Part shown: positions 1-16,018 of the stretch, piece after piece
Position numbering within the stretch: the first letter of the stretch is position 1
Layout of the letters: the number at the start of each line of letters is the position of its first letter
Origin: a virus
Taxonomy: Duplodnaviria > Heunggongvirae > Uroviricota > Caudoviricetes
DNA length: 25,044 nucleotides
Virus record (IMG/VR): IMGVR_UViG_2529293240_000020
Coordinates: 1 to 25,044 of that record
Reading direction: 5' to 3' (one strand)
Position numbers and translations under genes: made by a program
The notes under the pieces: model-generated
Told to the model about the DNA's origin: nothing
Databases searched by the model: none
What the model saw: the letters and a program-made list of their open reading frames with translations, nothing else

Positions 1-399
1 AAAGAACGGCGAACCAGCTATAGCCGTGAATTTAAGGTCCGTCTGGCTAAGCAGGCGTTACAGCCTGGGGCTGTTGTTGCCCGGATCGCCAGAGAACACG
101 ATATCAATAATAACCTGCTGTTTAAATGGAAAAGCCAGTACGAGGACGGCTTACTGAGCGATGATGACATACAGGAATGCATGCCTGTCCCGGTGGCTCT
201 GACTGATACGCCGGAGCCGACCAGACCAGTTACAAATCCCTTCTGGCGTAACAAGCATGATGAGCGCCCTGAGGGGGCTCCCGGAAACGTCCCACGGTGC
301 GAGCTGCATCTTAAATCAGGTGTGGTAAAACTGTTTGACCCTCTCACTCCGGAACTGTTACGGGCGCTAATCCGCGAAATGAAAGGGGGTATCCGATGA
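1..399 (+). CDS. IS66-family TnpA (orf1), 5-prime partial at window edge
   Basis: Frame 1 is open from position 1 (KERRTSYSREFKVRLAKQAL...), stop at 397..399 overlapping the tnpB start; helix-turn-helix-like N-terminal region. Confidence 0.7.
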   Translation, partial: KERRTSYSREFKVRLAKQALQPGAVVARIAREHDINNNLLFKWKSQYEDGLLSDDDIQECMPVPVALTDTPEPTRPVTNPFWRNKHDERPEGAPGNVPRCELHLKSGVVKLFDPLTPELLRALIREMKGGIR

Positions 400-635
400 T
401 AACGCTGCCGACCGGTACCAAAATCTGGATCATCGCTGGCATCACAGATATGCGTTGTGGCTTCAATGGCCTGGCTTCGAAGGTGCAGAACACGCTGAAA
501 GATGACCCGTTCTCCGGGCATATCTTCGTCTTCCGGGGCCGCAGTGGCAAAATGGTGAAAATACTGTGGGCCGATCGTGACGGGTTATGCCTGTTCGCCA
601 AACGCCTGGAACGGGGCCGCTTCTCTGGCCGGTGA
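396..635 (+). pseudogene. IS66-family TnpB (orf2), apparently frameshifted
   Basis: ORF ends ...KRLERGRFSGR* at 635, but the expected TnpB continuation (LLWPVTREEVHLTPAQLSMLLEGI) is readable in another frame from ~620, consistent with a 1-nt deletion near 624..626; a second shift may precede the C-terminal WQHPKRTERPGIRI segment. Confidence 0.55.
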
Positions 636-757
636 CCCGGGAGGAAGTGCACCTGACGCCAGCTCAGTTATCCATGCTACTGGAGGGGATCCGTGGCAAC
701 ATCCCAAACGGACAGAACGGCCTGGCATCCGGATATAACCCGTGATAAAACAAGGGA

Positions 758-2359
758 ATGAACAATGAACTCCCCGATGATATTGAGCTGCTTAAAGCCA
801 TGTTGCGTAAGCAACAGAGTCGGCTTCGACAGTATGCCTGTCAGATCGCGGGCTATGAGCAGGAAATTGAACGGCTGAAAGCGCAACTCGACAGGTTGCG
901 TCGTATGTTGTTCGGCCAGAGTTCAGAGAAAAAGCGTCATAAGCTTGAAAATCAGATCCGACAGGCAGAAAAACGACTGTCGGAACTGGAAAACCGGCTG
1001 AACACAGCCAGAAATCTTCTGGAAGATGCATCGACAGTCACAGATTCACCTGACACCAGTCCCCCGTCAGAAAACCCGATCGCCAGTAAGCCTGAATCCC
1101 CAGGACGAAAATCTTCACGAAAACCGCTGCCGGCAGAACTTCCCCGGGAGACACATCGCCTTCTGCCTGCTGAAACCAGTTGCCCGGCCTGTGGAGGTGT
1201 TCTGAAAGAAATGGGGGAAACAATCTCAGAGCAACTGGATATCATTAATACCGCCTTTAAAGTTATCGAAACCATACGTCCCAAACTGGCCTGTAGCCGG
1301 TGTGATGTCATCGTTCAGGCACCACTTCCCCCTAAACCGATCGAACACGGTTATGCCAGTGCAGGGTTACTTGCACGGATCCTGGTCAGCAAATATATGG
1401 AACATATCCCTTTATATCGCCAGTCAGAAATATACGCGCGACAGGGCGTGGAGCTGAGCCGTAATACCATGGTGCGCTGGGTATCAGAAATGGCAGACAA
1501 ACTCCGTCCTCTGTATATAGCGCTGAATGACTATGTTCTGGAGGCAGGAAAGGTGCACGCAGATGACACTCCGGTGAAACGTACTGGCCCCGGGGAACGG
1601 AAGACGAAAACGGGTCGTCTGTGGGTATACGTCAGGGATGATCGTAATGCGGGTTCATCCCTGCCGGCAGCCGTCTGGTTCGCGTATTCGGCAGATCGCA
1701 AAGGAGAACATCCGCAGCTCCACCTGGCAAAGTATCAGGGCGTACTGCAGGCTGATGCCTATGCAGGTTATAACGTACTGTACGAAACGGGCCGGGTGAA
1801 GGAAGCCGGGTGCCTGGCCCACGCCCGCCGAAAAATCCATGACGAGGATGTGCGCCGTCCGACAGAAATGACTCAGGAAGCGCTCAGACGGATAGCAGAG
1901 TTATACGACATAGAAGCGGAGATACGTGGCAGTCCGGCAGAGGAACGGCTTGCAGTCAGAAAAGCCAGAAGCGTCCAGTTGATGCAGTCGTTGTACGACT
2001 GGATACAGTTGCAGAGGAAAACGCTGTCGAAACATGCGGAGATGGCGAAGGCGTTCGACTATATCCTGAATCACTGGAATGCGCTGAACGAGTTCTGTCG
2101 TGACGGCTGGGTGGAAATAGACAACAACATCGGTGAAAACGCGTTACGATCGGTGGCGGTTGGAAGAAAAAATTATCTCTTTTTCGGCTCAGACAAGGGA
2201 GGAGAAAGTGCGGCGATCATCTACAGTCTGCTGGTCACCTGCAAACAGAACGAAGTGGAGCCGGAGGACTGGTTGCGCGAAGTGATCGAGAAGCTCAATG
2301 ACTGGCCGTCGAACCAAGTGCATGAACTGCTGCCCTGGAACTTCTCGTCTGTAAAATAA
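758..2359 (+). CDS. IS66-family transposase TnpC (orf3), 533 aa
   Basis: Long ORF with N-terminal coiled-coil/leucine-zipper region, zinc-finger-like CPACGG...CSRC motif and the large catalytic region characteristic of IS66 TnpC. Confidence 0.8.
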
Positions 2360-2391
2360 TCCTTACGCTACGTACTTCTCGGGGCGCTTAC

Positions 2392-2683
2392 TGTTGACCT
2401 GCTCTGCGTTTAATTTGGCATTGGTTCCCATACGCCGCATCTGAGCATCAAAATCAGCCACGCCTTTTACCGTCATGCTGCCACCAAGCTCGGCAATCAT
2501 CGCCGTGTAGCGGTTGCCAAGCGCATCCAGACTGCGCCCAGCGGCGTCGGTTGTGGCTTTGACCAGGCGCATGGCTTTCTGGTTATTCCGGGCGAACTGC
2601 GACATATTCGCGCCATACTGCCGGGCTTTGGCGGTCAGGTTCCCGGCAAGGTTGATCATGATTTCCGTGCTGAGACGGCTACC
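2392..2683 (-). pseudogene. Tail tape-measure gene fragment (N-terminal ~90 codons); codons 1-3 lie at 3950..3958 across the IS600 insertion; 3-prime end truncated by IS66
   Basis: Removing IS600 and one TSD copy restores GGAG-N7-ATG GCA ACA GGT AGC CGT CTC AGC ACG GAA ATC ATG ATC AAC... in frame with ORF 2363..2659; the last ~10 codons of that ORF (SKRPEKYVA*) are read from the IS66 terminus. Position directly after the tail-chaperone gene and the alanine-rich sequence fit a tape-measure N-terminus. Confidence 0.5.
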
Positions 2684-2725
2684 TGAGGTGTACTGGCAAT
2701 AGCGGACACTACCATTTGTTCTTTT

Positions 2726-3544
2726 TTAAGCAGCCATCTGATGATATTTTTCCCTGAAGGCTGCCGGGGAGATATTCCCCAGACGAGAGTGACGACGCTG
2801 ACGATTGTAGAAAATCTCAATGTATTCCCGTATTACTGAGATGGCTTCATCCCGGTTATTAAAACGATAGTGGCTCAGGCTCTCATTTTTCAGCGTTCCC
2901 CAGAAGCTTTCCATCGGAGCGTTGTCGTAACAGTTACCTTTACGCGACATTGATGTTTTCAGACCAGACTGCTCCTGTATGACCCGGTAATCGTATGCGC
3001 AGTACTGTGAACCTCGATCAGAGTGGTGGATTAGCCCGGCAGGTGGGCGCTGGCTCCTGAGCGCCATAAACAGGGCTTTACCTGTCAGCTCTTTTGTCAT
3101 GCGCTCTCCCATGGCGTAGCCGACAATTTCGCACGTATAAACATCTTTGATGCCAGCGAGGTACAACCATCCCTCCTGTGTGGCAACATACGTCAGGTCC
3201 GCCACCCAGACCTGATTTGGTGCTGTAGGAGCGAACGTCTGGTTCAGCAGATTTGGCGCAACTGGCAGATTGTGGTTCGGGTTCGTAGTCGCTCTGAACT
3301 TGCGTTTCTGCTTACAGCGTAGCCTTAGCTCCTTACGAAGACGTGCCAGTCGGTCACGACCAACGATGATGCCATTCTCTGCCAGCTCCGTCTGGAACCG
3401 CCGGGTTCCATATGTTTCGCGAGTGCGGATATGTGCCACCTTAATCTCCAGTTTTAGCCGCTCATCACTTTGTTTTCTGTCTGAGGGTTCATGCTGTACC
3501 CAGTTGTAATAACCGCTCCTGGATACACCAAATACCTGACACAT
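2726..3544 (-). CDS. IS600-like transposase OrfB (DDE integrase domain), expressed as an OrfAB fusion by -1 frameshift
   Basis: IS3-family OrfB with DDE catalytic region (HSDRGSQY... and downstream E); the frame overlaps the orfA 3-prime end. Confidence 0.8.
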   Translation of the reverse strand: MCQVFGVSRSGYYNWVQHEPSDRKQSDERLKLEIKVAHIRTRETYGTRRFQTELAENGIIVGRDRLARLRKELRLRCKQKRKFRATTNPNHNLPVAPNLLNQTFAPTAPNQVWVADLTYVATQEGWLYLAGIKDVYTCEIVGYAMGERMTKELTGKALFMALRSQRPPAGLIHHSDRGSQYCAYDYRVIQEQSGLKTSMSRKGNCYDNAPMESFWGTLKNESLSHYRFNNRDEAISVIREYIEIFYNRQRRHSRLGNISPAAFREKYHQMAA

Positions 3545-3579
3545 CGCTTCAATGGGAAATTGTTGTCGCCATTGTTCGA

Positions 3580-3882
3580 TTAACGCGTATTTTTCAGCGA
3601 CTCCTGTGCAAAATACGCTGTTGCTTTTTTTAATATATCTCGCTCAAGGCGAGCTTCATTTAACGCCTTACGCAGTTGCAGAATTTCAGATTCCAGTTCA
3701 GCCACCGTGCGGGAACCAGGAGTACCGAGCCCTTTTCTGGCGGCGGTAACCCATTGTCCTAAAGTGCCTTCAGGAAGGGATAATCGGGAAGCGCCTTCAC
3801 TGATCGAAAGTTGATTTTCAAGAACCGTTCTGACAGCTTCGGCTTTGAACTCTTTAGAGTAACGTTGGGTTTTTCTGCTCAT
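3580..3882 (-). CDS. IS600-like OrfA (HTH plus leucine zipper), 100 aa
   Basis: ATG at 3882..3880, typical IS3-family OrfA length and sequence. Confidence 0.8.
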   Translation of the reverse strand: MSRKTQRYSKEFKAEAVRTVLENQLSISEGASRLSLPEGTLGQWVTAARKGLGTPGSRTVAELESEILQLRKALNEARLERDILKKATAYFAQESLKNTR

Positions 3883-3946
3883 TATTAGCTCCTTCTGATG
3901 CCATTCTATTTCAGGAAGGAGTGTCCGTTAAACTCAGGCTACCTCA

Positions 3947-4154
3947 ACCTGTTGCCATACTGTTTCTCCAGTTGCTTTATCAGGCGGAACAACTGCCGCA
4001 GGGGCAGTTGTTCCAGGTACTGAATGCTGAATCGCGAAGACAGGTTAACCAGCAGGTTCATCAGTGCCGCCGCCAGCGGCATCAGTTCGCCCCCGCGTTG
4101 CCACCTCCTCAAGCATGTCATCCAGCACAGCCGCTTTCGTGCTGATAAGCTCAA
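3947..4154 (-). CDS. Overlapping +1-frame ORF at the 3-prime end of the tail-chaperone gene; possible frameshift extension. Its current stop is IS-derived; natively it ends at a TAG overlapping the tape-measure start
   Basis: Frame open from a TGA near 4178 through the chaperone stop (4045) to the IS600 junction; no ATG start (the ORF track begins it at TTG); translation is protein-like and amphipathic. Confidence 0.3.
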
Positions 4155-4440
4155 GGTCTGCCGGGTGGAGCATTCGCAGCTGTTTCATGTCCAGCGGGCC
4201 GGGGATATTACCGATTGACGCAACCTGACGGCGCATCATCTCCAGTCCCATCAGCACCTCAGAACAGTAGGCCACCGCCTTTCCGTTCCCGCCCATGACG
4301 ACGCGTTCTGCGGCCAGTTGCGCATCAATCACATCACTGGCGGTCAGTTCGCGCAGTTTCACGGTTTTATGCAGGGTTTCATCTGCCGTGCCTTTGCCGG
4401 TCAGAAGCCCGTGTTTCAGTTCAAATTCCATTGCGGCCAT
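4045..4440 (-). CDS. Phage tail assembly chaperone (Mu-type), 131 aa
   Basis: Small acidic protein immediately after the tail tube gene and before the tape-measure start, the conserved myovirus order. Confidence 0.5.
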   Translation of the reverse strand: MAAMEFELKHGLLTGKGTADETLHKTVKLRELTASDVIDAQLAAERVVMGGNGKAVAYCSEVLMGLEMMRRQVASIGNIPGPLDMKQLRMLHPADLELISTKAAVLDDMLEEVATRGRTDAAGGGTDEPAG

Positions 4441-4441
4441 G

Positions 4442-4798
4442 TCACACCTTCACGCATTTTTCACCGATAAAGTTGGCACTGATGGTGCCGGAATCCTCGT
4501 CCAGCTCTGCCGGGTTATCCGTGGCGGAACCCGTCATCATGTAGTTCAGGCCGTTGTCGCCGTAGAACATCACCGTGACATCTTCCCAGCTGCTGATTTC
4601 AATCACGTCCATATCCGCTGCCGCCGCAATGGTTACCTTGATGGACGGCGAGGCCATCTTGCTGGAGATACCCCAGACCTTGCCGCCGCCCATATGCTGG
4701 GTGCGGCTGAAGCCGCCCGGATTCAGCGTGGATTTCCCCTCGGTTTTAATTTCGCGGCCATTCACGCGAATGGTCGCCATGCCAAGAATTTTTGCCAT
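4442..4798 (-). CDS. Phage tail tube protein (Mu gpM-like), 118 aa
   Basis: Size, position directly after the sheath gene, recalled similarity to Mu-like tube proteins. Confidence 0.7.
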   Translation of the reverse strand: MAKILGMATIRVNGREIKTEGKSTLNPGGFSRTQHMGGGKVWGISSKMASPSIKVTIAAAADMDVIEISSWEDVTVMFYGDNGLNYMMTGSATDNPAELDEDSGTISANFIGEKCVKV

Positions 4799-4807
4799 GT
4801 GGCCCCC

Positions 4808-6283
4808 TTAAAGCTTGAACTGAATCAGGCCTGCCAGCACACGCAACTGGTTCACCAGATTCGGGTGGCAGATAAAGTTCAGGCGGTTTTTATCGCTGCT
4901 GTCGCGTGTCACCTGAAGCGTGTCCCTGTAATCGCTGAAGTTTTCCACAAGGCCCGCCGGGAGAAGTTCGGTCTGGCAGATATCCAGCAGCTCTGCAGTG
5001 CACAGCTTCGGCGTCATCACCGGCTGCCCCGCATCCAGCGAGTCCAGCACGTCATCATCCGCCAGCTTGTGGCGCGGATAACGGTTCGAGAAACGGTTTT
5101 TAATGATGTAACGGATACGGCCCAGCGTGGCGGGTGACTGCACATCAAGATACGACACATCCGCATCACCGTACTGGTTAACCCAGTACATGGTGATTTC
5201 ACGCTCGATGCAGACGTTATCCCCGGCGTCCACCATGTGCGTGGCAATGCCGTCATGCAGCAGCAGGTTACGTTCCGGCATATCCCAGCGAACATTACGC
5301 GCAGGCGGCAGAATGCCGGTCAGGACCAGCGTCTGAAGCGGACGCGCCGGGTCAATGGCAAGGTGATACGCTGCCGTTGCGCCGTATGACGCGGCCCACA
5401 TCCACGCCGGATGCGGCGACAGGTTGGTGCCGATGCAGCTAATCAGCCAGTCATTGCGGGTTTCACCAAACGTGCCGGTTTCCCCGTGCGTGCCACGAAA
5501 CGCCGTCCACAGCTGCGCTTCCATCATTTTGAGCGGCCCCCAGCGGTTCAGCAGTTCATCACGCAGGGTGTTCAGGCTTTTCGTGTCGGTGAACGGGGCG
5601 ATGATATCGGTAAACCACTCCGGGCCGATGGCCGCAACGGCGTCTGCCATTTCCGGTGTCCCGGTGCCGCCGGTAAACGCGGTTGCGGTCACCTTCACAC
5701 CTGCCGGGAAGGCTTCACCGGTGTGGTAGTTCAGGCGAACGTCGGCACCGTTGCCGGTGACGCCGTGCCAGTTCACGGTCAGCTCCACGGTATCCGTGGC
5801 ATCATCCTTCACCGCAGCGGCCACCTGCGTGGCAGGCTTTTTCGTCACCGCATCAGCAATGGCTTTTGCAATGTTTTCCTTCGTATCCCCGGCGCTCACG
5901 CTCACCTGAACGGACACACCGTTAATCAGCAGTGCCACCGTTCCGGCTTCGGTCGCTGTACCCAGCACGGTCAGCGTGGCTTTTGCGGCAGCGCCTTCAG
6001 GAGCGGCAACCGGCATCGCCCAAGTTTCCGTGTACGTGTTGGCACGACGCAGCATTTTGAGCATTTCAGCCAGCATCGACCCTTTGCCATAAAGCTGGTC
6101 TGCCTGGCTGTCACTGGTGATACGGGTCAGTGACAGGGCGTCTGCGCTGCCGGACGATACCGCATGGCCCATGACCAGAATTTTTCGGCTTTGCGCGGAT
6201 GCACCCTCCAGTGCCTGTGAATTGTCGATATCGATCCAGACAAGCGGGACGCGGATATCATCAGGAATGGAACCCAGCGACAT
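4808..6283 (-). CDS. Phage tail sheath protein (Mu gpL-like), 491 aa
   Basis: Length and sequence character of contractile tail sheath proteins of Mu-like phages; start ATG overlaps the upstream stop (TAATG). Confidence 0.8.
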   Translation of the reverse strand: MSLGSIPDDIRVPLVWIDIDNSQALEGASAQSRKILVMGHAVSSGSADALSLTRITSDSQADQLYGKGSMLAEMLKMLRRANTYTETWAMPVAAPEGAAAKATLTVLGTATEAGTVALLINGVSVQVSVSAGDTKENIAKAIADAVTKKPATQVAAAVKDDATDTVELTVNWHGVTGNGADVRLNYHTGEAFPAGVKVTATAFTGGTGTPEMADAVAAIGPEWFTDIIAPFTDTKSLNTLRDELLNRWGPLKMMEAQLWTAFRGTHGETGTFGETRNDWLISCIGTNLSPHPAWMWAASYGATAAYHLAIDPARPLQTLVLTGILPPARNVRWDMPERNLLLHDGIATHMVDAGDNVCIEREITMYWVNQYGDADVSYLDVQSPATLGRIRYIIKNRFSNRYPRHKLADDDVLDSLDAGQPVMTPKLCTAELLDICQTELLPAGLVENFSDYRDTLQVTRDSSDKNRLNFICHPNLVNQLRVLAGLIQFKL

Positions 6284-6468
6284 TATTTTTTCCCTCTGGT
6301 TTTGTTGTTATTTTTCGGAAGTGTGGTTATTTCCACATCTCCCTCGGCTTCACGGCGCAGCCAGTAAGCGCAGACGTTGAGACGTTCCCCTTCCGGGGAT
6401 AAATGTGCGCCATCCGGTTTACGGACACGGACGTTTTCCCGCGCTGGCTTAATCAGTTTCTGTTCCAT
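6283..6468 (-). CDS. Small Mu-like phage protein preceding the sheath gene (about 61 aa from ATG 6468; alternative ATG at 6483)
   Basis: Conserved small ORF position between neck genes and sheath; stop overlaps the sheath start. Confidence 0.4.
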   Translation of the reverse strand: MEQKLIKPARENVRVRKPDGAHLSPEGERLNVCAYWLRREAEGDVEITTLPKNNNKTRGKK

Positions 6469-7060
6469 CGTCACCCCGTACATGGATCACGTCGTTAATT
6501 TCAGTGTGTTCGCCGCTGCGCAGTGTCGCCCCGAGGCGCAGGAAATCCGGGAGCGCGGCGAGATCAATCTCTTCATCCAGCCGGAATTCCTGCTCCCACG
6601 TCACCGCCCACATGGTGACACCCAGCCCGTCGAGGCTGACGGAGTAAATGTTGTCTGCCCGCACATCAGCAGCCATGCGTTCAGCCCCCATGCCCGCTGT
6701 GGCATCCGACGACAGCAGGCGTTTGATCACCTTTCCGGCCAGCACTTCACAGCGCACGTCGCGGGAATACCCCCACGAATCCGTCGCCATGATGTAAGCC
6801 ACCCAGGTGACCAGACCGGACAGCCCGCCGCGCGGGTTGATATCCCGGACACGCAGGGCCGCGACACGGATACAGCCGGTGCGACCGGACAGATAGCGTT
6901 TCACTTCATCCGGGCTGTTGAACTGGCCGATGTGACGCTCCACCACGTCAGCCCGGTCAGGGGTGTCCCCCTGAAGGGCCGTCTGCAGCCAGGCCACAAT
7001 GTGCTCTGCGGCCGCAACGGTGCTCCCCGGTGTGCGCAGTTCAGGGCGTTGTTCTGTCAT
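6449..7060 (-). CDS. Mu-like phage protein (gp37/gp38-like; putative neck or tail-completion component), 203 aa
   Basis: Position between the virion morphogenesis gene and the sheath; start overlaps the upstream stop. Confidence 0.45.
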   Translation of the reverse strand: MTEQRPELRTPGSTVAAAEHIVAWLQTALQGDTPDRADVVERHIGQFNSPDEVKRYLSGRTGCIRVAALRVRDINPRGGLSGLVTWVAYIMATDSWGYSRDVRCEVLAGKVIKRLLSSDATAGMGAERMAADVRADNIYSVSLDGLGVTMWAVTWEQEFRLDEEIDLAALPDFLRLGATLRSGEHTEINDVIHVRGDDGTETD

Positions 7061-7602
7061 GGCAGAACCTCCTTCCAGAAATGACTGATAACCTGTTGCA
7101 GCTCCTGCTGGCTGGCAGAAGACAGCCCCAGAAATTCACGTTGCGGAATGTTCATCATGCGGTGATGTGCGCCGACGGTCTGCCAGACCGGATATTTCAG
7201 CGCCCGCCCGAAACACTGCGAGATAAGCCGTTTGTGGGCGCTGACCGGCACGCTGCCGGAAAAGCCGTCATTCATGATGCGGGCATAATCCAGCGGTGAA
7301 CCGATACGCACCACGCGGTTTTCCACGATGTACTGGATACTCTCCAGCAGATGGCCTTCACCGCGCAGCAGACTCTGGTTGCCGTGGCGGGTCTTTTTGT
7401 ACCCGTCAGACCAGTCCGGCCAGCGTTCGCCACCCGGACTGGTTTTCTCATCGATGATGCGGCGGCGGGTCTGTGATTCCACCACCGCACCGATGCTTTC
7501 CAGCAGCTCTGACTGCAATGAACCCTCTGCCAGCTTTTCAACGGCGCGGCGGATATCCTCCAGACGCTGGTCACCGCTGACCTGTACAGAAATCCCCATC
7601 AC
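7057..7602 (-). CDS. Phage virion morphogenesis (tail completion) protein, Mu G-like family, 181 aa
   Basis: Sequence character and position; ATGA-type overlap with the upstream gene. Confidence 0.5.
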   Translation of the reverse strand: MMGISVQVSGDQRLEDIRRAVEKLAEGSLQSELLESIGAVVESQTRRRIIDEKTSPGGERWPDWSDGYKKTRHGNQSLLRGEGHLLESIQYIVENRVVRIGSPLDYARIMNDGFSGSVPVSAHKRLISQCFGRALKYPVWQTVGAHHRMMNIPQREFLGLSSASQQELQQVISHFWKEVLP

Positions 7603-8036
7603 AGCACCCCTTTCAGGTTGTTACGGGTGAACAGCCGGGCATTGGCACCCACCACAATAATTTTCCCGTTGTCGGTTTCTGCCGGGGTGGCATACGTCGG
7701 CAGGCCCAGGTCACGGGTGCCGTTCGCCATTTCACGCAGGGTTTTAATGGCGTCGTCGTAGCGTTTCTGGATCAGCTCCGTGATTTGATTGTCACGCTCT
7801 GATAACCAGTAAAACGCCAGCGATACCGCCACGCGTTGCAGCGGGCGCGGGATTTCCGTCACCCCCAGCGGCAGCTGGTAGCGGCGGGACAGAAACGAAT
7901 CAATTTCCGCTTCCGCATCACTGATGGCCTGACGGATTTTGTCTTCATCCAGCCCGTTGGTTTCCCGGTTAATCGCCATGTTCCAGACAAGATTGCCGTC
8001 CGCGCGTAACAGATCTTCCTGCGTGATGTATCCCAT
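7599..8036 (-). CDS. Mu gp36-like head-tail connector protein, 145 aa
   Basis: Position downstream of the major head gene in a Mu-type order; overlapping start/stop. Confidence 0.5.
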   Translation of the reverse strand: MGYITQEDLLRADGNLVWNMAINRETNGLDEDKIRQAISDAEAEIDSFLSRRYQLPLGVTEIPRPLQRVAVSLAFYWLSERDNQITELIQKRYDDAIKTLREMANGTRDLGLPTYATPAETDNGKIIVVGANARLFTRNNLKGVL

Positions 8037-8347
8037 CAGCCTTTCTCCGCTTCCCGGACAATCAGATTCGGCTCTGCCATCAGGCGGGTGGCAACCGCAG
8101 CGCTCACCGCCACATCCTCACCGATATGTGACCAGAAACGGCCACAGCGCCAGAACCCGTTTTCAGACACGGCCCTGACGTTCAGCCGGACAGGGACGTC
8201 ACCCTGTACAGCAACCGGGTCTTCAGCCGGACGTGGTTCATTCGCCTGACCGTCAGCCACAATAACGTCTGCCAGCGGTGCCGGGTTTTCCTGTGCAGCG
8301 CTGTTCTTTGCGGCTTTCGCGCCTTTGGTTTCTGCTTTTTCACTCAT
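8036..8347 (-). CDS. Mu-like phage protein (FluMu N-terminal-domain-like), Ala/Pro-rich N-terminus, 103 aa
   Basis: Small ORF directly after the major head gene, typical of Mu-like head modules. Confidence 0.45.
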   Translation of the reverse strand: MSEKAETKGAKAAKNSAAQENPAPLADVIVADGQANEPRPAEDPVAVQGDVPVRLNVRAVSENGFWRCGRFWSHIGEDVAVSAAVATRLMAEPNLIVREAEKG

Positions 8348-8418
8348 GACTCTGCCTTTTAAAAGGCAGTTAAAAGGGCATTCACAGCACCTTTTAACTG
8401 CGGTTTACGGATGACGGG
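8348..8418 (-). promoter_or_regulatory. Structured intergenic region after the major head gene: perfect 18-bp palindrome CTGCCTTTTAAAAGGCAG (8351..8368) and a 9-bp-stem hairpin GTTAAAAGG-N12-CCTTTTAAC (8368..8397)
   Basis: Inverted repeats read directly from the sequence; an mRNA stem-loop after the capsid gene is a common phage arrangement. Confidence 0.35.
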
Positions 8419-9324
8419 TTATGCCGGGGGGGTGATGTACGGGCTGTCCACGATCTCCACATCCTTGTACCAGATGTTGGAATCGCCGCCGTTAACCAGC
8501 ATGGCGTCAATAATGAGCTTCGCGTCCGCACGGTTTTTCGGCCCCACCACAAGGGTGGTCGGGCGGATGCCCAGCGGCTCACCGTTGGTGCCCTTCATGC
8601 CCCGCAGCAACTCATTGGCTTTTTTGTAGTTCTCCACCGTCAGTGCTGCACGGGAACCGACGGCGGTCTGCCAGAAGCCGAAGCCCGCATTACAGCGACC
8701 GTCCACGCCGTACAGGAACTCGTGGTTCTTGAAGGTGTGCTCGCTGTTCAGATCGTCCAGGGCTTCAAACTTAAAGGCGCGTCGCGTCTGCCAGATGATG
8801 GGTTTCAGCACCTGCGACTCATCAATCAGGAACCACGGTTCGCCCTTGTCTGATGCCGGGGTGCCGACAACGTTGCTGTACGTACCGTCACCCAGCGGGT
8901 GGTCTTCATCAAAGAAGTTCTGGCCGTCAAAGCACAGGGTGTTAAAACCGGCACACAACAGGGCGTAACACAGCTTGTCCGGGAACACAGCAGTCATACG
9001 GCCATAGCGTTCGGCGGTAATGCTGTACTGACCAATCTGGTCATCTTCAATGTGTTCACGCTTAACGCGAATGGAACTTTCCCAGAGTTTGTTGGTGATG
9101 GTGTAACCATAACCGTCCAGCGTTGCCAGCTGACGCTCACCGACCCATTCTTTGATGTCCGGTAAATCTTTCATCCAGCCGTAAGTGTTGGAGGCGGACG
9201 AACTCGGCACCTCAGAAGCAATACGATTCCACTGCGGTTCGACACCACTCAGTCCACGGGTAAAGGCGGCGCTCAGGCAGGTGGTCAGTGCATGAAGGAT
9301 TTCAGAACTGATAGTCTGTGACAT
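8419..9324 (-). CDS. Major head (capsid) subunit, Mu gpT-like, 301 aa
   Basis: Length and sequence typical of Mu-like major head subunits; position after the protease/scaffold gene. Confidence 0.8.
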   Translation of the reverse strand: MSQTISSEILHALTTCLSAAFTRGLSGVEPQWNRIASEVPSSSASNTYGWMKDLPDIKEWVGERQLATLDGYGYTITNKLWESSIRVKREHIEDDQIGQYSITAERYGRMTAVFPDKLCYALLCAGFNTLCFDGQNFFDEDHPLGDGTYSNVVGTPASDKGEPWFLIDESQVLKPIIWQTRRAFKFEALDDLNSEHTFKNHEFLYGVDGRCNAGFGFWQTAVGSRAALTVENYKKANELLRGMKGTNGEPLGIRPTTLVVGPKNRADAKLIIDAMLVNGGDSNIWYKDVEIVDSPYITPPA

Positions 9325-9331
9325 GTGTTAC

Positions 9332-10288
9332 TTACTCCTGTTTCGGTTTAGCGGCGAGGAACTCTTCCCCGGTAATACCCATGCTGCGACACATCGCCAG
9401 TTCGGCATCGGTCAGTGTCTGCGCGGGTTTATCCTTGCCCTGGCTGGGCTTGTCGTTGTTAACCAGCGGCTGTGCACCTTTGGTGTACTCCGCAAACTGT
9501 TTGCGGCCTTCTTCCGTGCGGCAGGTGGCAAGGAACATGTCACGGTTTGCCGGGGCGACTTTTCCGGCCCCGATGGCCGCATCCACAAGCGCCTCGGCTT
9601 CCTTCTCTTCCAGTTGCTGAAGGCGTTTTTCTGCGGTTTCGGCACGGTTCAGTGCCAAATTGTGGGTTTCCACCGGCACAAACTTCGTCAGGTCAGGTGT
9701 CTGTGCGCGGTTCAGCGCCACCTGTTCGTTCTCCTGAAGTTGTTTAATGGCGGCCACGGTATCGTCCACCGTGGCGGATTCAGCCAGCCCAAGCAGGCCG
9801 GTGATTTGCACAGGTACTGTCATCGGGTTTTTCTCCGTATTCAGTGCAGGAAAATCCAGGTTAGGTTTGTTGGTCAGCCCGACGCTGGACAGGCGCGTCA
9901 CCGCACCGTCTGCGTCATGGAAAAACGCCGGGCTGTAATAGCGGTAGCGGCGCTCGCTCAGCATCCACCGGGCGGACTCACTCCAGACAACACGCCCTTC
10001 AATGGTGCCGCTGTCCGTCACCCGCAGTGCTTCCACCCAGCCATACGCCGGAGCCTCTTCACCCCGCGGGCCTTTAATTTCGGTGGCATGTTCAATGTCC
10101 ACCGGAATGTTGATGTCGGACGAACGGGCAACCACCTCATGTGGATTGCGGTTCATCCACGTCCGGCCATCGCGCCCGGTGAACTCACCCGCAGGAACGA
10201 GTTCAAGCCATTCCGGCAGTTGAGCGGGTGTCAGCTCAGGGATGGGTTCTGGCAGGGAAAAACACAGCGCCAGCAGTTCCGGTTGCAT
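9332..10288 (-). CDS. Head maturation protease / scaffold protein, Mu gpI-like, 318 aa
   Basis: Protease-like N-terminal half and coiled-coil, charged scaffold-like C-terminal half (EKRLQQLEEKEAEALV...); GGAG SD 9 nt upstream of ATG 10288. Confidence 0.7.
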   Translation of the reverse strand: MQPELLALCFSLPEPIPELTPAQLPEWLELVPAGEFTGRDGRTWMNRNPHEVVARSSDINIPVDIEHATEIKGPRGEEAPAYGWVEALRVTDSGTIEGRVVWSESARWMLSERRYRYYSPAFFHDADGAVTRLSSVGLTNKPNLDFPALNTEKNPMTVPVQITGLLGLAESATVDDTVAAIKQLQENEQVALNRAQTPDLTKFVPVETHNLALNRAETAEKRLQQLEEKEAEALVDAAIGAGKVAPANRDMFLATCRTEEGRKQFAEYTKGAQPLVNNDKPSQGKDKPAQTLTDAELAMCRSMGITGEEFLAAKPKQE

Positions 10289-10331
10289 GTCAGTCTCCGT
10301 CGTCTGGGGTTACCGACGGTCAGTATGCGGA

Positions 10332-10367
10332 AGGCAGAAAAAAAGCCGGATTTACCGGCTTCACTGA
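10332..10367 (-). promoter_or_regulatory. Copy B of a ~35-bp repeated dyad element (AAGCCGG-ATTTA-CCGGCTT hairpin plus T-run on the minus strand), 50 nt upstream of the protease gene start
   Basis: Near-identical to 17871..17906 (two substitutions and one A-run length difference); minus-strand RNA would fold as a 7-bp stem, 5-nt loop, followed by UUUUUU. Confidence 0.45.
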
Positions 10368-10502
10368 AAACGGGGAAATACCCCCTTCAAAACCCCTTCA
10401 AAAACGCCACGGACGCTTCAAAAAAGCCAGGGTGTACATTCATGCCATCAGAATAAAAAACGCGTTTCTGATGCGTTTCAGGGGCATTTACGGCGGGGAG
10501 GG

Positions 10503-11255
10503 TTATTCACTGTTAAAACGGGCCTGTCTGGCCGCCAGCTCCTGCTCACGGTTTATGCCGGGATTGTAGTTCCAGCCCGGATCAATCCCTTCCGGCACCT
10601 CTTCCTCTTCGCCCGTACGTTTGTTCACCCAGCGGACAGTTCTGATTTCCGGCGCTTCGGTGTGAATGGTGCCCTGTGCCGCCAGTTGCGCATACTCACC
10701 ACGGCTGACCTGACGGATGGTGCATTTGCAGCCCCAGCCGTTAGGGGCAAAATGCGTCTGCCAGAACGGATGCTCTACCGGCAGACACAGACGCGCCCAT
10801 TTCACATGCTCCACCCGGTGCTCACGGGATGGCCCCAGCTCGTACATCAGATACGGCATGGCCTGCTTTGTCCGCTGAATGCGTTCCCACTGGCCCGCCG
10901 CGCGGGCGGTGCGCATGTTGGTATCAAAAATCGTGCGGAGGCGGCGGTCGCTGCCCAGTTGCACGGTGCGGGTTTCACCCGTCAGCGGATCATCCATCTC
11001 CTGTACGCCCCACCATCCGCGTTTTATCAGCAACGGTTGCAGCATCTCCCGGAACTCGCTGAACGTCTGCCCGCTTTGCAGGGCGTCTTCCACAAGGGCT
11101 TTCACATCCGACAACAAATCCAGTTGCAGCATTCTGGCCACGGGGAAGCTGTACCGGTGCTCTTCCCGCCACACATCCCGGTAATCAAAACCGGGACGCA
11201 GCTTCTTCGCCTTCAGCCACGCCAGCGCCTCTTTCGGGATGAGGGTTTCACGCAT
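10503..11255 (-). CDS. Head morphogenesis protein, Mu gpF-like, ~250 aa from ATG at 11255
   Basis: Position after the portal gene; ATG at 11255 overlaps the portal stop by 8 nt (the track ORF extends to 11312). Confidence 0.65.
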   Translation of the reverse strand: MRETLIPKEALAWLKAKKLRPGFDYRDVWREEHRYSFPVARMLQLDLLSDVKALVEDALQSGQTFSEFREMLQPLLIKRGWWGVQEMDDPLTGETRTVQLGSDRRLRTIFDTNMRTARAAGQWERIQRTKQAMPYLMYELGPSREHRVEHVKWARLCLPVEHPFWQTHFAPNGWGCKCTIRQVSRGEYAQLAAQGTIHTEAPEIRTVRWVNKRTGEEEEVPEGIDPGWNYNPGINREQELAARQARFNSE

Positions 11256-12819
11256 GAGCAGTGTCTCCCAGCGCACGCGCCTTAAAGCACACCTCCGCCA
11301 GTTGCAGGGCAAAGTCGTCCGCGTTCAGCGTTTCCTGAAGCTCAGGCAGGCGTTTCAGAAAGTCATCAAAACTGTCGCACTCCTGCGCCAGTGTCAGCAC
11401 CGGGTTCGTGAACGCCTCGCCGGTTTTCTGCCAGTCACGCAGGGCATCATCCACCATCTGTGCCAGTTCGTCGGGGTGTTCCCTGTTCAGGGCGACGCGC
11501 TCGCGGTTCATCGCCATATCACCCGGCATCCCGGCAGACACCGGATGCAGAACATCAGCCCCTTCGTCTGGCTCAGCCAGGCCGAACCGGTCCCGCAGCG
11601 CCGACTCCTGAACCCGCATCCCCCGGTCAATCAGCGCCACCAGAGCATCTGTCAGCGCCTTCAGATCTTCGGCTTCACTGATACGCAGAACAACACGGGG
11701 GTAGTGCGCCTGTGGCCCGTAGTTGGCCTCGATGTAGGGCCGCACCAGATATTCATTCAGCGTGTTAGCCAGCTGCCGCGCGTCCCAGCGCACAATGTCC
11801 ATGCGCACCTGATTGTGCACGTCCGCCTGTGAACGCGAACTGCCGTTATCCGTGGTCATGGTCTGCCCCAGCACAGCCTTACTGATTTGCGCATCACACC
11901 ATTCCGCCATTTCACGGAACAGTGCGCCGCCGTTATTCCGGCTGGCGGTTTCCTGCATCTCCAGTTGCATGGACTGCGGAATGGCACACCCGGCATCCGA
12001 GGCAATGGAGGCAATCGCATCAATCAGTACGCGGATTTGCTCCTCCGTGGCGTTGGGACCGTATTTCCCCACCGTGACCGGAATGCCGAATTTTTCCGCG
12101 AATGCCCACCAGTCACGCACGGTAAAGGATTTCAGCATGTACATTACCGCCACCAGACGGGCCAGACCGTTACGCAGCGGCAGACCGGATTTCAGGCGCG
12201 GCTGGTGAACAATGAATTTTCCCGGTGTCAGTGGTACACCATCCACCGGTTCATCATCCGTCAGCAGGCGGAACTGGCGCAGTGTGGGCTTTTCGGCTTT
12301 CAGAAAACGGGGATCAACCCACTCATAATCACGGGGCACCCAGTGATTGTTACGGGTGTTCCACAGAATTTCACAGACCGCCACGCCTTTTCCCAGCCCG
12401 TCGAGCAGATCAAACATCAGCTCGGGGATTTGCGGGGCTTCCATCAGCGCACGGATGGCGTCCGCCAGCTGCACGTCAGCATCGTCATCACTGGCCGCCA
12501 CCACCACCGGTTCGATACCCGCCACCGTCAGCTTGCGGGTGCGCAGTACCGAGGCGTAATGCAAATCGCGTTCTTCCATCTCTTCAGCAAGGATAAAAAA
12601 ATCACGCGTGATACCGTCGGCGGCATTGCGCAGAATACCGGCCAGTCTGCCGGGATTCAGCCCGGAGGCGATGCTGATGCCCGGAGAGGCCGGACGCACA
12701 CCCGCCTGACGCGGACGGGCCTGTACTTCATCGAGCCTCTCTTTTTTCAGCGTGTCTTCCTCACCGGTTGCCGGGTTCAGCAGACGGCGAACGGCCCCGG
12801 CCAGTTGTTTCAGGTTCAC
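11248..12819 (-). CDS. Portal protein, Mu gp29-like, 523 aa
   Basis: Size and position immediately after the large terminase gene with ATGA-type overlap. Confidence 0.8.
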   Translation of the reverse strand: MNLKQLAGAVRRLLNPATGEEDTLKKERLDEVQARPRQAGVRPASPGISIASGLNPGRLAGILRNAADGITRDFFILAEEMEERDLHYASVLRTRKLTVAGIEPVVVAASDDDADVQLADAIRALMEAPQIPELMFDLLDGLGKGVAVCEILWNTRNNHWVPRDYEWVDPRFLKAEKPTLRQFRLLTDDEPVDGVPLTPGKFIVHQPRLKSGLPLRNGLARLVAVMYMLKSFTVRDWWAFAEKFGIPVTVGKYGPNATEEQIRVLIDAIASIASDAGCAIPQSMQLEMQETASRNNGGALFREMAEWCDAQISKAVLGQTMTTDNGSSRSQADVHNQVRMDIVRWDARQLANTLNEYLVRPYIEANYGPQAHYPRVVLRISEAEDLKALTDALVALIDRGMRVQESALRDRFGLAEPDEGADVLHPVSAGMPGDMAMNRERVALNREHPDELAQMVDDALRDWQKTGEAFTNPVLTLAQECDSFDDFLKRLPELQETLNADDFALQLAEVCFKARALGDTAHA

Positions 12820-14351
12820 AGTAAACCTCCCTCATTTTTCAGGCCACGCGTCAGCTTCATCTGGCGGCGTGCGTTGCGCTCTTCCGGTTTCGCCGGGCGG
12901 TTCAGGCGGTGCAGCTCGTAACGGTGGCAGTCATCTTTACTGGCAAGGAAGCCCAGGAAAATAGCCACAGCGGCGTCGCCGTGACGCTTGCGGCCATCGC
13001 TGCCTTTAGTACGGGCATCGTCAATACCGGGAACGCCACGCAGTAACTGAATGGCCCCGAGGTCATTGATCACGTCTTCATGCTTCGGAAGGATCAGCTC
13101 ATCATCTTCAAACGCCGCACGGAAACGGGGCATGTTTTCGCGGTAGAACGCCACGGACAGCATCACCTGTTCCACCTCGTCGCCGTATCGTTCTGCCGCC
13201 TGTTCTGCCAGATACTGACCATTACCCCGCGCATCCATTTTGATACCGTCACGACGGGGCAGACGATCGCAAAGCCAGAACAGCACCTGCTCCTGCTGTT
13301 TAAACGGCACATTGGCAAGCTCAACCAGAAACGGCACCTCGCGGGTGGTGTCGTCGTTCACCGTCACCGGGGCCAGCACGGTCAGGTCACCCGAACGCGC
13401 AAAGTCTTCCCCCAGACAGTGGCGCAGATTCTTCGGGAGTTTTTCCAGCTCGGGGCGCACCACCGTTTCCAGCCATTCCCGGATATCTGCCCGGCGCTGA
13501 CTTTCCGTCAGTGCGTTAAATTCCGGTGTGCCGGTAAAGCGCAAGACTTTCCCGGTGCCACGGGCCGCACGTTCACGCAGTGAGCGGGGGATATACGTGC
13601 CGCCGCCGTTTTTCGGGACGCAGTAATATTCCTCCAGCGCATCTTCGCGGGTGGCGGTATTTCGCAGCAGGCCTTCTTTCCATTCGGCCTCGGCTTCCGG
13701 TGACCACACCATGCCGCGCACCTGACAGATACGCCGGTACAGCCCGTCATTGCAGGCATCATCCAGCGTGATGGTGTGAATACGGTAATCTTTTTTGCCT
13801 GCGCGGCTTTCCTGAATCAGCTGGTTAAACGGGTTGTCCACGCCGTCATGGGTGGAGATAAGGCGAACCTTACCGCCCCACGTGGTCAGTGGTGTGACCG
13901 CTTTGAGTACCTCATCCAGCTTTTCATGAAACGCCGCTTCGTCGATGGTGACATTCCCCTGCATCCCGCGAATGTTGCCCGGATTACTGGACAGCGCCTT
14001 GACCTTAAATCCGCTGGCGAAGTACACGACGAACGTCAGAATGTCCTTGTCTTCGTCGGTGATCACTTCCTCGCGGATTTCTTCCGCGGCTGCATTAAAC
14101 GCTTTTGCCCACATCGCCACGGCGTCGATAAATTCGCGGGCCATCTCCTTATTCGAACCGATGTAAAAGTGATCGCATCCGCCGTTTTCCTTCTTCAGTG
14201 ATGCGGTCAGTGCCGCATCTGCCGCTTCCGCCCAGGTTAAACCGGTACGGCGGGATTTTTCGGCGATTTTCAGTTTTGAATCATCCGCCACCCAGCGTTT
14301 CTGATACGGCAGCAGAACATCGGATTCACTGAATGCGTTCATCTGTGTCAT
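12816..14351 (-). CDS. Terminase large subunit, Mu gp28-like, 511 aa
   Basis: Size, ATPase-like N-terminal region and acidic nuclease-like C-terminal region, position upstream of the portal gene. Confidence 0.8.
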   Translation of the reverse strand: MTQMNAFSESDVLLPYQKRWVADDSKLKIAEKSRRTGLTWAEAADAALTASLKKENGGCDHFYIGSNKEMAREFIDAVAMWAKAFNAAAEEIREEVITDEDKDILTFVVYFASGFKVKALSSNPGNIRGMQGNVTIDEAAFHEKLDEVLKAVTPLTTWGGKVRLISTHDGVDNPFNQLIQESRAGKKDYRIHTITLDDACNDGLYRRICQVRGMVWSPEAEAEWKEGLLRNTATREDALEEYYCVPKNGGGTYIPRSLRERAARGTGKVLRFTGTPEFNALTESQRRADIREWLETVVRPELEKLPKNLRHCLGEDFARSGDLTVLAPVTVNDDTTREVPFLVELANVPFKQQEQVLFWLCDRLPRRDGIKMDARGNGQYLAEQAAERYGDEVEQVMLSVAFYRENMPRFRAAFEDDELILPKHEDVINDLGAIQLLRGVPGIDDARTKGSDGRKRHGDAAVAIFLGFLASKDDCHRYELHRLNRPAKPEERNARRQMKLTRGLKNEGGLL

Positions 14352-14929
14352 ACACTAATCCCCAGAATTTCACGTTTGATGGTGTCAGCCGCACCGCCTG
14401 ACAGACCGCCCGCTCTGACCAGCTCTTCGGTTTTCTCTGCCATTTCCTGCGCAAACGCATCGCGGATTGCTTTTTCGCGTTTATGGCTGGTCATGGCTGC
14501 CGCTTCCAGACGCTGGGCAACCAACGCCAGTTGCCCCAGCGCCTTCGGTGCAACAGGTTTGTCGTCTTCTGTCATCGACATGGACGTTTCAAAGGCCAGC
14601 GTTTTTACAAACTCCATCAGCAGCCTGCCGACATCTAACGTCGGCGCGGAACCCAGCTTTGCCGCCCAGACTTCGGCCATTTCGCGGGAGGCGCGGATTT
14701 TTGCCCCGACTTTTTCCATGCGGCTGGCATAGCGGTTTAAGCCCGTCCGGCTTAACTGCATCCCCCCCGGCAGGTTATGTTCGTCAATCAGGGCATTGAT
14801 GGCTTCGCGGATTTCTTCCTGCGTGTGCCGCTTTTCCCGCAGCATCTGGTGTAACTGCTCACGGATGCTGTCCGGGAGTAAATCCACTTTGGAAAGACGG
14901 CCACGGGTGGGGCGTTGTTCATTTTCCAT
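14348..14929 (-). CDS. Putative small terminase / DNA-binding protein, Mu gp27-like, 193 aa
   Basis: Immediately upstream of and overlapping the large terminase gene; charged helical protein. Confidence 0.5.
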   Translation of the reverse strand: MENEQRPTRGRLSKVDLLPDSIREQLHQMLREKRHTQEEIREAINALIDEHNLPGGMQLSRTGLNRYASRMEKVGAKIRASREMAEVWAAKLGSAPTLDVGRLLMEFVKTLAFETSMSMTEDDKPVAPKALGQLALVAQRLEAAAMTSHKREKAIRDAFAQEMAEKTEELVRAGGLSGGAADTIKREILGISV

Positions 14930-15206: not shown

Positions 15207-15208
15207 GT

Positions 15209-15806: not shown

Positions 15807-16018
15807 GTTTTCCTCCTGCGCTCCCGCGCCTGCTGACAGTCAATACAGGTCACCACATCAGGCAGTGCCGCAAGGCGCTGTGCCGGAATAACGTTCCCGC
15901 AGTCATTGCAGAAGCCCCGACTGTGGGGTGCTTCTTTTATCCGCATCAGCCAGGCGTTAACGACGTCCTGACGTTCGTTTAAAACCACTTCACTGATGCG
16001 GTCGGTTTCATCGGTCAT
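15791..16018 (-). CDS. TraR/DksA-family C4 zinc-finger protein, 75 aa
   Basis: CNDCGNVIP...(17 aa)...CIDCQ four-cysteine motif and size typical of phage TraR-like proteins; ATGA overlap with the upstream gene. Confidence 0.7.
   Translation of the reverse strand: MTDETDRISEVVLNERQDVVNAWLMRIKEAPHSRGFCNDCGNVIPAQRLAALPDVVTCIDCQQARERRRKTCPGK

Follow-up and report, generated by a model that had tools for sequence, protein, structure and literature searches.

The window analysed here (25,044 nucleotides, the first 25 kb of contig AFOW01000037.1 from the Shigella flexneri SFJ17B draft genome) holds a Mu-like prophage whose tape-measure gene runs into an insertion sequence (IS), and we asked whether that element truncated the prophage or merely interrupted it, and what the intact appearance of the adjoining head and tail genes signifies. 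A first-pass annotation of this DNA had favoured truncation with loss of the distal tail module, which is not what we found: the locus is very probably a simple insertion of the IS66-family element ISSfl3, with the distal tail genes lying beyond it, in a decaying Mu-like prophage. The features around the junction are listed below by window position and strand.

1-2391, plus: ISSfl3 (IS66 family), 3' 2.4 kb of the 2754-bp element, cut by the contig end (Pfam; 99.2% DNA identity to annotated ISSfl3)
1-399, plus: tnpA' of ISSfl3 (ORF; Pfam HTH_Tnp_1 at 1-396)
396-~745, plus: tnpB of ISSfl3, frameshifted in the window copy (Pfam TnpB_IS66 at 396-635)
758-2359, plus: tnpC of ISSfl3 (Pfam zf-IS66, DDE_Tnp_IS66, DDE_Tnp_IS66_C)
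to 2391, plus: ISSfl3 right terminal repeat, ending ...CGCTTAC (sequence)
2392-2399, no strand: right-hand copy of the 8-bp target-site duplication TGTTGACC; the left-hand copy lies outside the window, before the other IS end
2363-2659, minus: chimeric 98-aa ORF (EGM60498.1); its first 89 codons are tape-measure, and the IS terminal repeat supplies the last 9 and the stop (sequence)
2392-2683, minus: Mu-like tape-measure 5' fragment, codons 4-100 from the upstream ATG, equal to codons 1-89 from an internal ATG at 2659 (VL40 homology, phrog_973)
2684-3946, minus: IS600 (IS3 family; Pfam HTH_Tnp_1 and rve; named IS600 in RefSeq)
2726-3544, minus: IS600 orfB (ORF)
3580-3882, minus: IS600 orfA (ORF)
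2681-2683 and 3947-3949, no strand: 3-bp IS600 target duplication ACC (a single ACC at the VL40 empty site)
3947-3958, minus: orphaned tape-measure start ATG GCA ACA GGT, with a GGAG ribosome-binding site before it (sequence)

The IS66-family identity originally proposed for the element was confirmed by these domains and by RefSeq, in which the nearest copies of 1-2391 are named ISSfl3. Three successive ORFs (tnpA-tnpB-tnpC, with DDE_Tnp_IS66 in tnpC) form the hallmark organisation of the family, and the terminal inverted repeats start with GTAAGCG; the right end was read at 2380-2391, where the terminus is ...CGGGGCGCTTAC. Both ends are GTAAGCGCCCC... and the full length is 2754 bp in the complete genome CP100042.1 (L009) and in a second SFJ17B contig, AFOW01000026.1 (L015). 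Organisation, terminal repeats, 8-bp duplication and length are those of annotated ISSfl3 copies in S. flexneri and E. coli, with no substantive difference, although the window copy is cut by the contig end and carries indels in tnpB and tnpC that neither CP100042.1 nor the AFOW01000026.1 version of this IS shows. A search of the literature on ISSfl3 returned nothing relevant, and one by accession yielded no more than a strain list.

The IS ends at 2391 and homology to the intact Mu-like prophage of E. coli VL40 (NZ_CM177011.1) starts exactly at 2392, so the first reading of the junction at 2391/2392 stands. At the DNA level the fragment matches the start of the VL40 tape-measure gene (618 aa) with 99.3% identity, and phrog_973 ('tail length tape measure protein') matched the 98-aa ORF over residues 1-89 only (E=1.4e-28) and the full VL40 protein with E=4e-141. 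It was PHROGs that gave this identity, as Pfam had no match for the 98-aa ORF; PF10145 on the C-terminal part of the tape measure scored 28.1 bits, below its 33.2-bit threshold. The last nine codons of the ORF (SKRPEKYVA) come from the terminal repeat, in agreement with its earlier description as a tape-measure N-terminus ending in IS-derived codons. Its position is likewise that of a tape-measure gene, immediately following the tail chaperone pair and preceding the DNA-circularisation and baseplate hub genes, with the order sheath, tube, Gp41_Mu, tape measure, DNA_circ_N, gpP seen in VL40, in L005-L014 and in L009.

The same gene had also been hit by IS600, which inserted after tape-measure codon 4, where the likely frameshift extension of the chaperone has its stop codon, and thereby parts the first four codons and the ribosome-binding site from the fragment. 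This upstream ATG is where PGAP and other gene callers place the start of the intact gene, and from it the orphaned start now reads into a TGA in the IS600 end. Known IS600 and the window copy share the IS3-family layout of orfA (HTH) and orfB (rve DDE) in overlapping frames, for which RefSeq annotates a programmed frameshift in a homologue, together with TG...CA ends and the 3-bp duplication; the element is 1264 bp in relatives, including L009, and the window copy differs from all of them in lacking one T at 2721. The first-pass annotation was silent on this element, though the stretch it described ended at 2683, the base just before it. In-silico excision of ISSfl3 plus 8 bp and of IS600 plus 3 bp restored an uninterrupted 617-aa tape-measure ORF, and two relatives (L007 and L011) with IS600 at the same site and without ISSfl3 show the intermediate state, with an open 606-aa tape-measure gene.

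The protein cluster that contains the chimeric ORF led to the distal half of the tape-measure gene. On AFOW01000026.1 the same 5' fragment recurs, followed by a full ISSfl3 and then directly by the distal tail genes: the tape-measure remainder (PF10145), a DNA-circularisation protein (DNA_circ_N), gpP, gp45, gp46, Baseplate_J (J/gp47) and gp48, before the contig stops inside one further tail gene of which only the start is seen. The order beyond ISSfl3 is the same in CP100042.1, where the locus reaches into the J/gp47 gene. Relative to CP100042.1, the tape-measure remainder and gpP of AFOW01000026.1 each have a 1-base deletion, which may be either errors or real early decay. The other IS end and an 8-bp target duplication, which the first-pass annotation had suggested seeking in the full genome, were both found in the two records: the complete ISSfl3 of AFOW01000026.1 is bracketed by GGTCAACA/TGTTGACC, and GGTCAACA stands on both sides of the IS at 587 and 3349 in AFOW01000026.1 and at 12043 and 14805 in CP100042.1. 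A duplication of 8 bp is usual for the IS66 family. The VL40 empty site has a single copy of the target, and only the right-hand copy falls within the window. Baseplate genes beyond a simply inserted, duplication-flanked IS are the arrangement that the annotation itself had said would mean interruption rather than deletion. ISSfl3 would thus have entered the tape-measure gene by simple transposition, with duplication of TGTTGACC, splitting the gene after codon 100 of 617 (89 from the internal ATG) and creating the chimeric ORF, apparently without deletion at the junction, as the tape-measure remainder and baseplate module follow directly past the IS. Among the best 120 matches to the VL40 tape-measure protein, no N-terminally truncated variant was seen.

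The two SFJ17B contigs overlap over window positions 1-2982 at 99.4% identity (7 mismatches and 10 gap positions across 2982 bases). One of the seven mismatches, at 2425, falls inside the unique 292-bp tape-measure fragment, giving two 98-aa proteins (EGM60498.1 and EGM61657.1), and it could be read as a sign of two copies of the IS600/tape-measure-fragment/ISSfl3 junction in SFJ17B, for instance after segmental duplication, of which the copy on AFOW01000037.1, joined to the head/sheath genes, could be truncated, the one on AFOW01000026.1 being joined to the distal tail genes. We consider this highly unlikely. The locus is contiguous in CP100042.1, an exact-match look-up of the chaperone gave one place in that record with no similar places collapsed, and each of the two contigs ends in a repeat, which is what commonly produces redundant overlapping ends. 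Most of the differences are indels or are grouped at contig ends; in 10 of the 17, AFOW01000026.1 and CP100042.1 agree against the window, and four more are grouped within ~90 bases of the AFOW01000026.1 end and look like draft noise. CP100042.1 is 99.92% identical to the window over 1-14440, differs from it by one base over 10978-25044, and has the same layout of IS600, ISSfl3, IS911 and IS1. Orphan contigs of 284-285 bp in other S. flexneri assemblies encode only the tape-measure fragment, as expected of unique DNA between two repeats.

That ISSfl3 instead marks a deletion end-point, with the prophage truncated in the tape measure and the baseplate/fibre module lost from the genome, has scarcely any probability left: no phage-derived DNA lies left of 2392 within the window, and ISs do cause deletions of adjacent DNA (in this same prophage the IS1 at 22285-23052, which has no target duplication, marks a loss), but the contig end at which the window opens is internal to the IS, and an SFJ17B contig and the 99.9%-identical CP100042.1 show the whole IS, its 8-bp duplication and the distal genes right after it. 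The earlier observation that no baseplate, fibre or tail-completion genes follow is accurate within the window and fails as a statement of absence, since position 1 is the end of AFOW01000037.1, inside the IS, which leaves 2362 bases on the IS side of the 98-aa ORF, against a requested flank of 10 kb (record range 1-12659). What keeps the distal genes out of the window is the assembly, which broke off inside the IS repeat. No deletion can be read from a window whose first base falls within a repeat at the end of a contig; in this case a second contig of the draft supplied the 'absent' module.

Interruption of the tape measure under a simple ISSfl3 insertion leaves the state of the rest of the prophage, and of the DNA beside it, to be described.

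3939-4154, minus: ORF overlapping/downstream of the gp41 chaperone, likely its frameshift extension (gp41.5-like; phrog_38797, frameshift predicted)
4045-4440, minus: gp41 chaperone, open (Pfam Gp41_Mu)
4442-4798, minus: tail tube gene, open (Pfam Tail_tube)
4808-6283, minus: tail sheath gene, open (Pfam Phage_sheath_1)
6283-18904, minus: genes for head, packaging and lysis, with Mor/GemA (among them major head gpT, protease, F, portal and terminase), open with one exception at 15505
19302-20550, plus: IS911 (IS3 family), a simple insertion in an early-region gene with the 3-bp duplication CAG (99% identity to the annotated IS911 of phage Sf6)
22166-22284, minus: 3'-terminal 119 bases of gam, the leftmost prophage sequence that survives (VL40 comparison)
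22285-23052, minus: IS1, 768 bp, without target duplication, flanked by CCTTGTTGA and GAACTTCTG (sequence, ORFs)
23197-24438, minus: 413-aa P4-type integrase (Phage_integrase domains)
24643-25005, minus: tmRNA gene ssrA (ARAGORN)

A Mu-type structural module was recognised by Portal_Mu, Phage_Mu_F, Mu-like_gpT, Gp41_Mu and Mor. About 20 late genes are open, and the head, sheath, tube and chaperone genes are collinear with VL40, the proximal tail genes (4045-6283) at 98.4-99.7% identity and ungapped. The gp41.5-like ORF had its stop changed by the IS600 insertion and gained two residues, and the F gene has a 12-bp in-frame deletion at 10532. The first-pass statement that the head, sheath and tube genes upstream are all open was accurate, whereas its claim of no frameshifts fails at one position: the DUF2730 gene has lost a single base at 15505, a deletion that CP100042.1 does not have and that is possibly a sequencing error.

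At the other end of the prophage, the early region has been replaced by IS1. The Mu left-end set (DDE transposase A, MuB ATPase, repressor/ner) is found neither in the window nor at the corresponding locus of CP100042.1, where IS1 likewise adjoins the last 119 bases of gam with an identical junction (L018). Because c, ner, A, B and gam are present in the close relatives VL40, L016 and L019 and the left-end genes are missing here, the element is a remnant of a Mu-like transposable prophage and not a functional member of that class. An IS1-associated rearrangement appears to have taken out most of gam together with the module of repressor, ner, A and B. The IS911 empty site is seen in L019. IS600 is common to relatives, and ISSfl3, IS911 and the IS1-associated loss came later; events that can be ordered in this way could help to mark the lineage of this S. 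flexneri clade.

The locus is thus best explained as a cryptic Mu-like prophage (sheathed-tail, transposable-type) struck by at least four insertion sequences, and the earlier view that it is defective holds, given the damage by IS600, ISSfl3, IS911 and IS1. Judging from gene content, it would be unable to make tails or to replicate, because the tape measure is cut at codons 4 and 100, IS911 sits in an early gene and the IS1-linked loss removed the left end; on the same grounds we predict neither expression nor particles.

The intact-looking capsid and proximal tail genes had nevertheless raised the question of whether they are still used. They might be held open by selection through use by the host, as a module that forms particles or acts in a gene-transfer-like way, or as a reservoir for recombination with incoming Mu-like phages, a reading to which the open late genes and a dN/dS of ~0.10 against the VL40 prophage would lend support and under which the ISs would not be merely marks of decay. 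However, that ratio reflects divergence of two phage lineages from each other before the insertions, and we rejected it as evidence for current selection. Between the window and L007/L011, which are free of ISSfl3, there are 4 substitutions and one 12-bp in-frame indel over 3947-14428 (~10.5 kb), too few for a test of selection or for decay to be expected, so that the open frames call for no special answer. The tape-measure gene is broken, and the early promoter/repressor region is gone, with most of the early genes that start the Mu-type transcription cascade, Mor being kept; this loss would argue against regulated expression. Selective maintenance is therefore very doubtful, and it is just as improbable that the open head, sheath and tube genes still serve S. 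flexneri by recombining with incoming Mu-like phages (SfMu) or by forming tail-less, DNA-filled heads. Under the preferred reading of recent IS damage, the head and proximal tail genes owe their intact look to insertions that are very recent, rather than to any demonstrable maintenance.

Compared with known elements, the prophage follows VL40 from the 3' end of gam to the tape measure at 98% identity, as a mosaic of 91-100% per gene, with 18908-19301 and 20551-20799 non-homologous. It has in common with VL40 and relatives in E. coli, Shigella and Salmonella the gene order Mor, lysis, terminase, portal, F, protease, gpT, sheath, tube, gp41, tape measure, N, P, gp45-48, fibres and com/mom, whereas the VL40 prophage has no IS and retains the c, ner, A and B genes and gam that the window is without. 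Shigella phage SfMu (KP010268) and phage Mu belong to the same lifestyle class and have the same module order, but SfMu matches at 93.8% DNA identity over ~1.3 kb of the early region only and shows no DNA-level similarity over the structural genes. A megablast of the isolated-phage collection gave no close phage, only IS911 copies, the 1.3-kb SfMu match and a Klebsiella phage. Because this best phage record covers 23% at 73% identity, the prophage appears on sequence grounds to be a lineage of Mu-like elements separate from SfMu and known only as prophages.

S. flexneri commonly harbours Mu-like prophages, both complete and remnant (PMC4406740), and IS expansion with IS-driven pseudogenes is characteristic of Shigella (PMC7373316). 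The locus shows no difference from that pattern: IS1, IS600, IS911 and an IS66-family element interrupt genes, and IS profiles differ between strains few SNPs apart. It is a routine kind of IS-driven prophage decay, and its biological weight is small, as one further case in Shigella. The same junction was not found among complete E. coli genomes, where the best matches were the two ISs alone or an IS-free prophage. A locus with similar ISSfl3/IS600 spacing in FDAARGOS_943 (H1) was set aside as an unrelated IS cluster. Beyond IS1, the integrase and ssrA region (23197-25005) is host or island DNA outside the Mu-like element, and smpB lies upstream of it.

The first 2391 bases of the window carry tnpA, tnpB and tnpC open reading frames (ORFs) in succession on the plus strand, as identified with Pfam, and match copies labelled 'IS66-like element ISSfl3' at 99.2% (megablast against complete E. 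coli genomes). The element ends at 2391 in ...CGGGGCGCTTAC, which is the GTAAGCG terminal repeat in reverse complement. Starting at 2392, the window shares 99.3% identity with the 5' end of a gene for a 618-aa 'phage tail protein', located between the gp41 tail chaperone and DNA-circularisation genes of the intact, insertion sequence (IS)-free Mu-like prophage of E. coli VL40. The 98-aa ORF across this junction (2363-2659, minus strand) matched the tail length tape measure protein (phrog_973, E=1.4e-28, PHROGs) over residues 1-89 only, and its final nine codons (SKRPEKYVA) derive from the IS end. The first-pass annotation was therefore correct in placing the junction at 2391/2392 and in regarding the last codons of the ORF as IS-derived.

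Insertion sequences of the window and their genes
tnpA of ISSfl3, plus strand, cut by the window edge (Pfam HTH_Tnp_1)
tnpB of ISSfl3, plus strand (Pfam TnpB_IS66)
758-2359, plus strand, tnpC of ISSfl3 (Pfam zf-IS66, DDE_Tnp_IS66, DDE_Tnp_IS66_C)
2684-3946, IS600 (IS3 family), with orfA at 3580-3882 and orfB at 2726-3544 (Pfam HTH_Tnp_1, rve)
19302-20550, IS911, simple insertion in an early-region gene with duplication of CAG; empty site in the close-relative locus L019
22285-23052, IS1, abutting the final 119 bases of gam

An exact-sequence look-up located the 98-aa ORF (EGM60498.1 of Shigella flexneri SFJ17B at NCBI) on the 144 kb contig AFOW01000037.1 (contig 37; assembly GCA_000217895.2). 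Only 2362 bases exist on the IS side of the ORF, versus the 10 kb requested (record range 1-12659), so the window and the contig begin at the same base. At this point the draft breaks off inside ISSfl3, and because it stops within the IS, the window's lack of distal tail genes carries no information on the genome.

The far side of ISSfl3 was recovered from a second contig of the same assembly. Clustered with the chimeric ORF at 90% identity is another SFJ17B protein of 98 aa, EGM61657.1, encoded on AFOW01000026.1 (contig 26, 12.3 kb, locus L015), which starts inside IS600 and overlaps window positions 1-2982 at 99.4% identity. Here the same tape-measure fragment is followed by a complete ISSfl3 (tnpC, tnpB, tnpA), the tape-measure remainder (PF10145), DNA_circ_N, baseplate gpP, gp45, gp46, Baseplate_J, gp48 and the beginning of one more tail gene. 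The complete element is 2754 bp long, both of its ends start with GTAAGCGCCCC, and the 8-bp sequence GGTCAACA directly abuts it on both sides (TGTTGACC on the window plus strand, 2392-2399); the octamer is present once in the empty site of VL40. The same structure is held contiguously in the complete 4.71 Mb genome CP100042.1 (loci L009 and L018), which matches window 1-14440 at 99.92% identity and has one base different over window 10978-25044. In-silico excision from L009 of ISSfl3 with one octamer, and of IS600 with one 3-bp copy, restored an uninterrupted tape-measure ORF of 617 codons. The claim that the element truncates the prophage, with loss of the distal tail module, is thus overturned: this is a simple insertion with an 8-bp target duplication and baseplate genes beyond the IS, the very outcome that the first-pass annotation had listed as its refutation, and the prophage only appears truncated because the contig ends within a repeat.

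Where the two SFJ17B contigs overlap, 17 positions are discordant. At 10 of these, including tnpB-frameshifting indels, contig 26 agrees with CP100042.1 against the window; four more are grouped within ~90 bases of where contig 26 itself terminates, and the remaining three lie at 2162 (in the IS), 2721 (a shared homopolymer base) and 2425 (in the unique fragment). tnpB is put out of frame by five bases missing from window 620-700, and tnpC has +1 and -1 changes at 1580-1600 that compensate each other; these indels are absent from the contig 26 version of the IS and from CP100042.1, and probably reflect noise in assembly or sequencing close to where the contig ends, or reads of other IS copies. 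The difference at 2425 (L015 position 561) changes T79A between EGM60498.1 and EGM61657.1 and is either an error or evidence of a second copy of the junction. That SFJ17B has such a copy would fit a difference inside the unique tape-measure fragment, but we consider it highly improbable, the chaperone having been found at a single place in CP100042.1 by exact-match look-up. We take the contig differences to be draft noise arising where contigs end at repeats. Single-base deletions in L015 relative to CP100042.1, at 3829 (splitting the tape-measure remainder into 206 + 338 aa) and 7219 (lengthening gpP to 367 from 356 aa), are either homopolymer errors or first decay. The gene after gp48 is called in two forms, 366 aa or 225 aa behind a ~420-base gap, dividing L005, L006, L012, L013 and L015 from the related prophage loci L007, L010, L011 and L014; these may be orientations of an invertible fibre region like the Mu G segment.

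The feature described in the first-pass annotation ended at 2683, the final base ahead of IS600, an element its text ignored. IS600 is flanked by a 3-bp duplication, ACC, at 2681-2683 and 3947-3949 (a single ACC in VL40). Gene callers start the intact tape-measure gene (MATGS/NRLSTEIMINLAG...) at an ATG with a good GGAG ribosome-binding site, and IS600 cuts this upstream ATG off after codon 4, the phage strand reading ...CTGGAGAAACAGT ATG GCA ACA GGT before a TGA within IS600. The site is also the stop codon of an ORF (3939-4154, phrog_38797) that overlaps the 3' end of the gp41 chaperone gene, is presumably its frameshift extension, and gains two residues through the insertion. L007 (AKMV01000036.1) and L011 (UGYT01000001.1) have IS600 at the same site without ISSfl3, and IS600 insertion therefore preceded that of ISSfl3. 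In other S. flexneri assemblies, contigs of 284-285 bp have the tape-measure fragment as their sole coding content, as expected where short reads were assembled over the same pair of ISs.

The VL40 late genes, Mor through chaperone, all have counterparts in the window that are open and collinear, bar two exceptions. The F (head morphogenesis) gene has a 12-bp in-frame deletion at 10532 (250 vs 254 aa), common to CP100042.1 and absent in L007, L011, L019 and VL40. At 15505 the window lacks one base that L019 and CP100042.1 have, which puts the 3' end of the DUF2730 gene in another frame (109 vs 101 aa); the late region has no other frameshift, and this one is possibly a sequencing error. The description of the structural genes as open and without frameshifts accordingly stands for openness and collinearity, with the DUF2730 gene as the exception. 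Their intact appearance is expected from recency: window 3947-14428 has four substitutions plus the 12-bp indel relative to the ISSfl3-free L007 and L011, and 2722-14440 has no differences relative to CP100042.1, a divergence at which ~10 kb is expected to be free of inactivating mutations under any selection regime. Compared with VL40, dN/dS is 0.10 overall, from 182 synonymous and 59 non-synonymous differences; this value reflects divergence of phage lineages before the insertions and is silent on present use.

The prophage is indeed defective, as first proposed, with its tape-measure gene cut twice, an early-region gene interrupted and its left end lost. IS911, which is 99% identical to the annotated copy of phage Sf6, interrupts the early region; stretches at 18908-19301 and 20551-20799 are without similarity to the VL40 prophage. 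IS1 connects what is left of the prophage with the intA-ssrA region (a 413-aa P4-type integrase, the tmRNA gene ssrA, then smpB); its flanks, CCTTGTTGA and GAACTTCTG, differ and form no 9-bp target duplication. The repressor, ner, transposase A, MuB and kil of close relatives are absent at this junction, and CP100042.1 has the same junction and also misses the Mu early/transposition module. The element is a remnant whose left end was lost via an IS1-associated rearrangement. Because the element lacks the promoter/repressor region of its left end and most of the early genes starting the Mu-type cascade (Mor is retained), regulated late expression is unlikely, judging from gene content. The segment with ssrA (24643-25005) and the P4-type integrase (within 23197-25005) looks like an island integrated at ssrA and cut short by IS1 144 bases past the integrase gene.

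ISSfl3, IS600, IS911 and IS1 all belong to the standard IS complement of Shigella. The event at this locus is recent and routine, an IS entering a prophage already in decay, and its kind is already known: IS expansion and IS-driven pseudogenes that differ among close strains are well documented in Shigella (PMC7373316), and complete and remnant Mu-like prophages are reported to be common in S. flexneri (PMC4406740). Assignment of the lineage to SfMu was rejected, DNA similarity being confined to an early-region stretch of ~1.3 kb; among isolated phages in the collection, none was close over the structural genes. Near-identical prophages are widespread in E. coli, Shigella and Salmonella genomes. 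Per-gene identity to VL40 is mosaic (91-100%), as is typical of recombining prophages.
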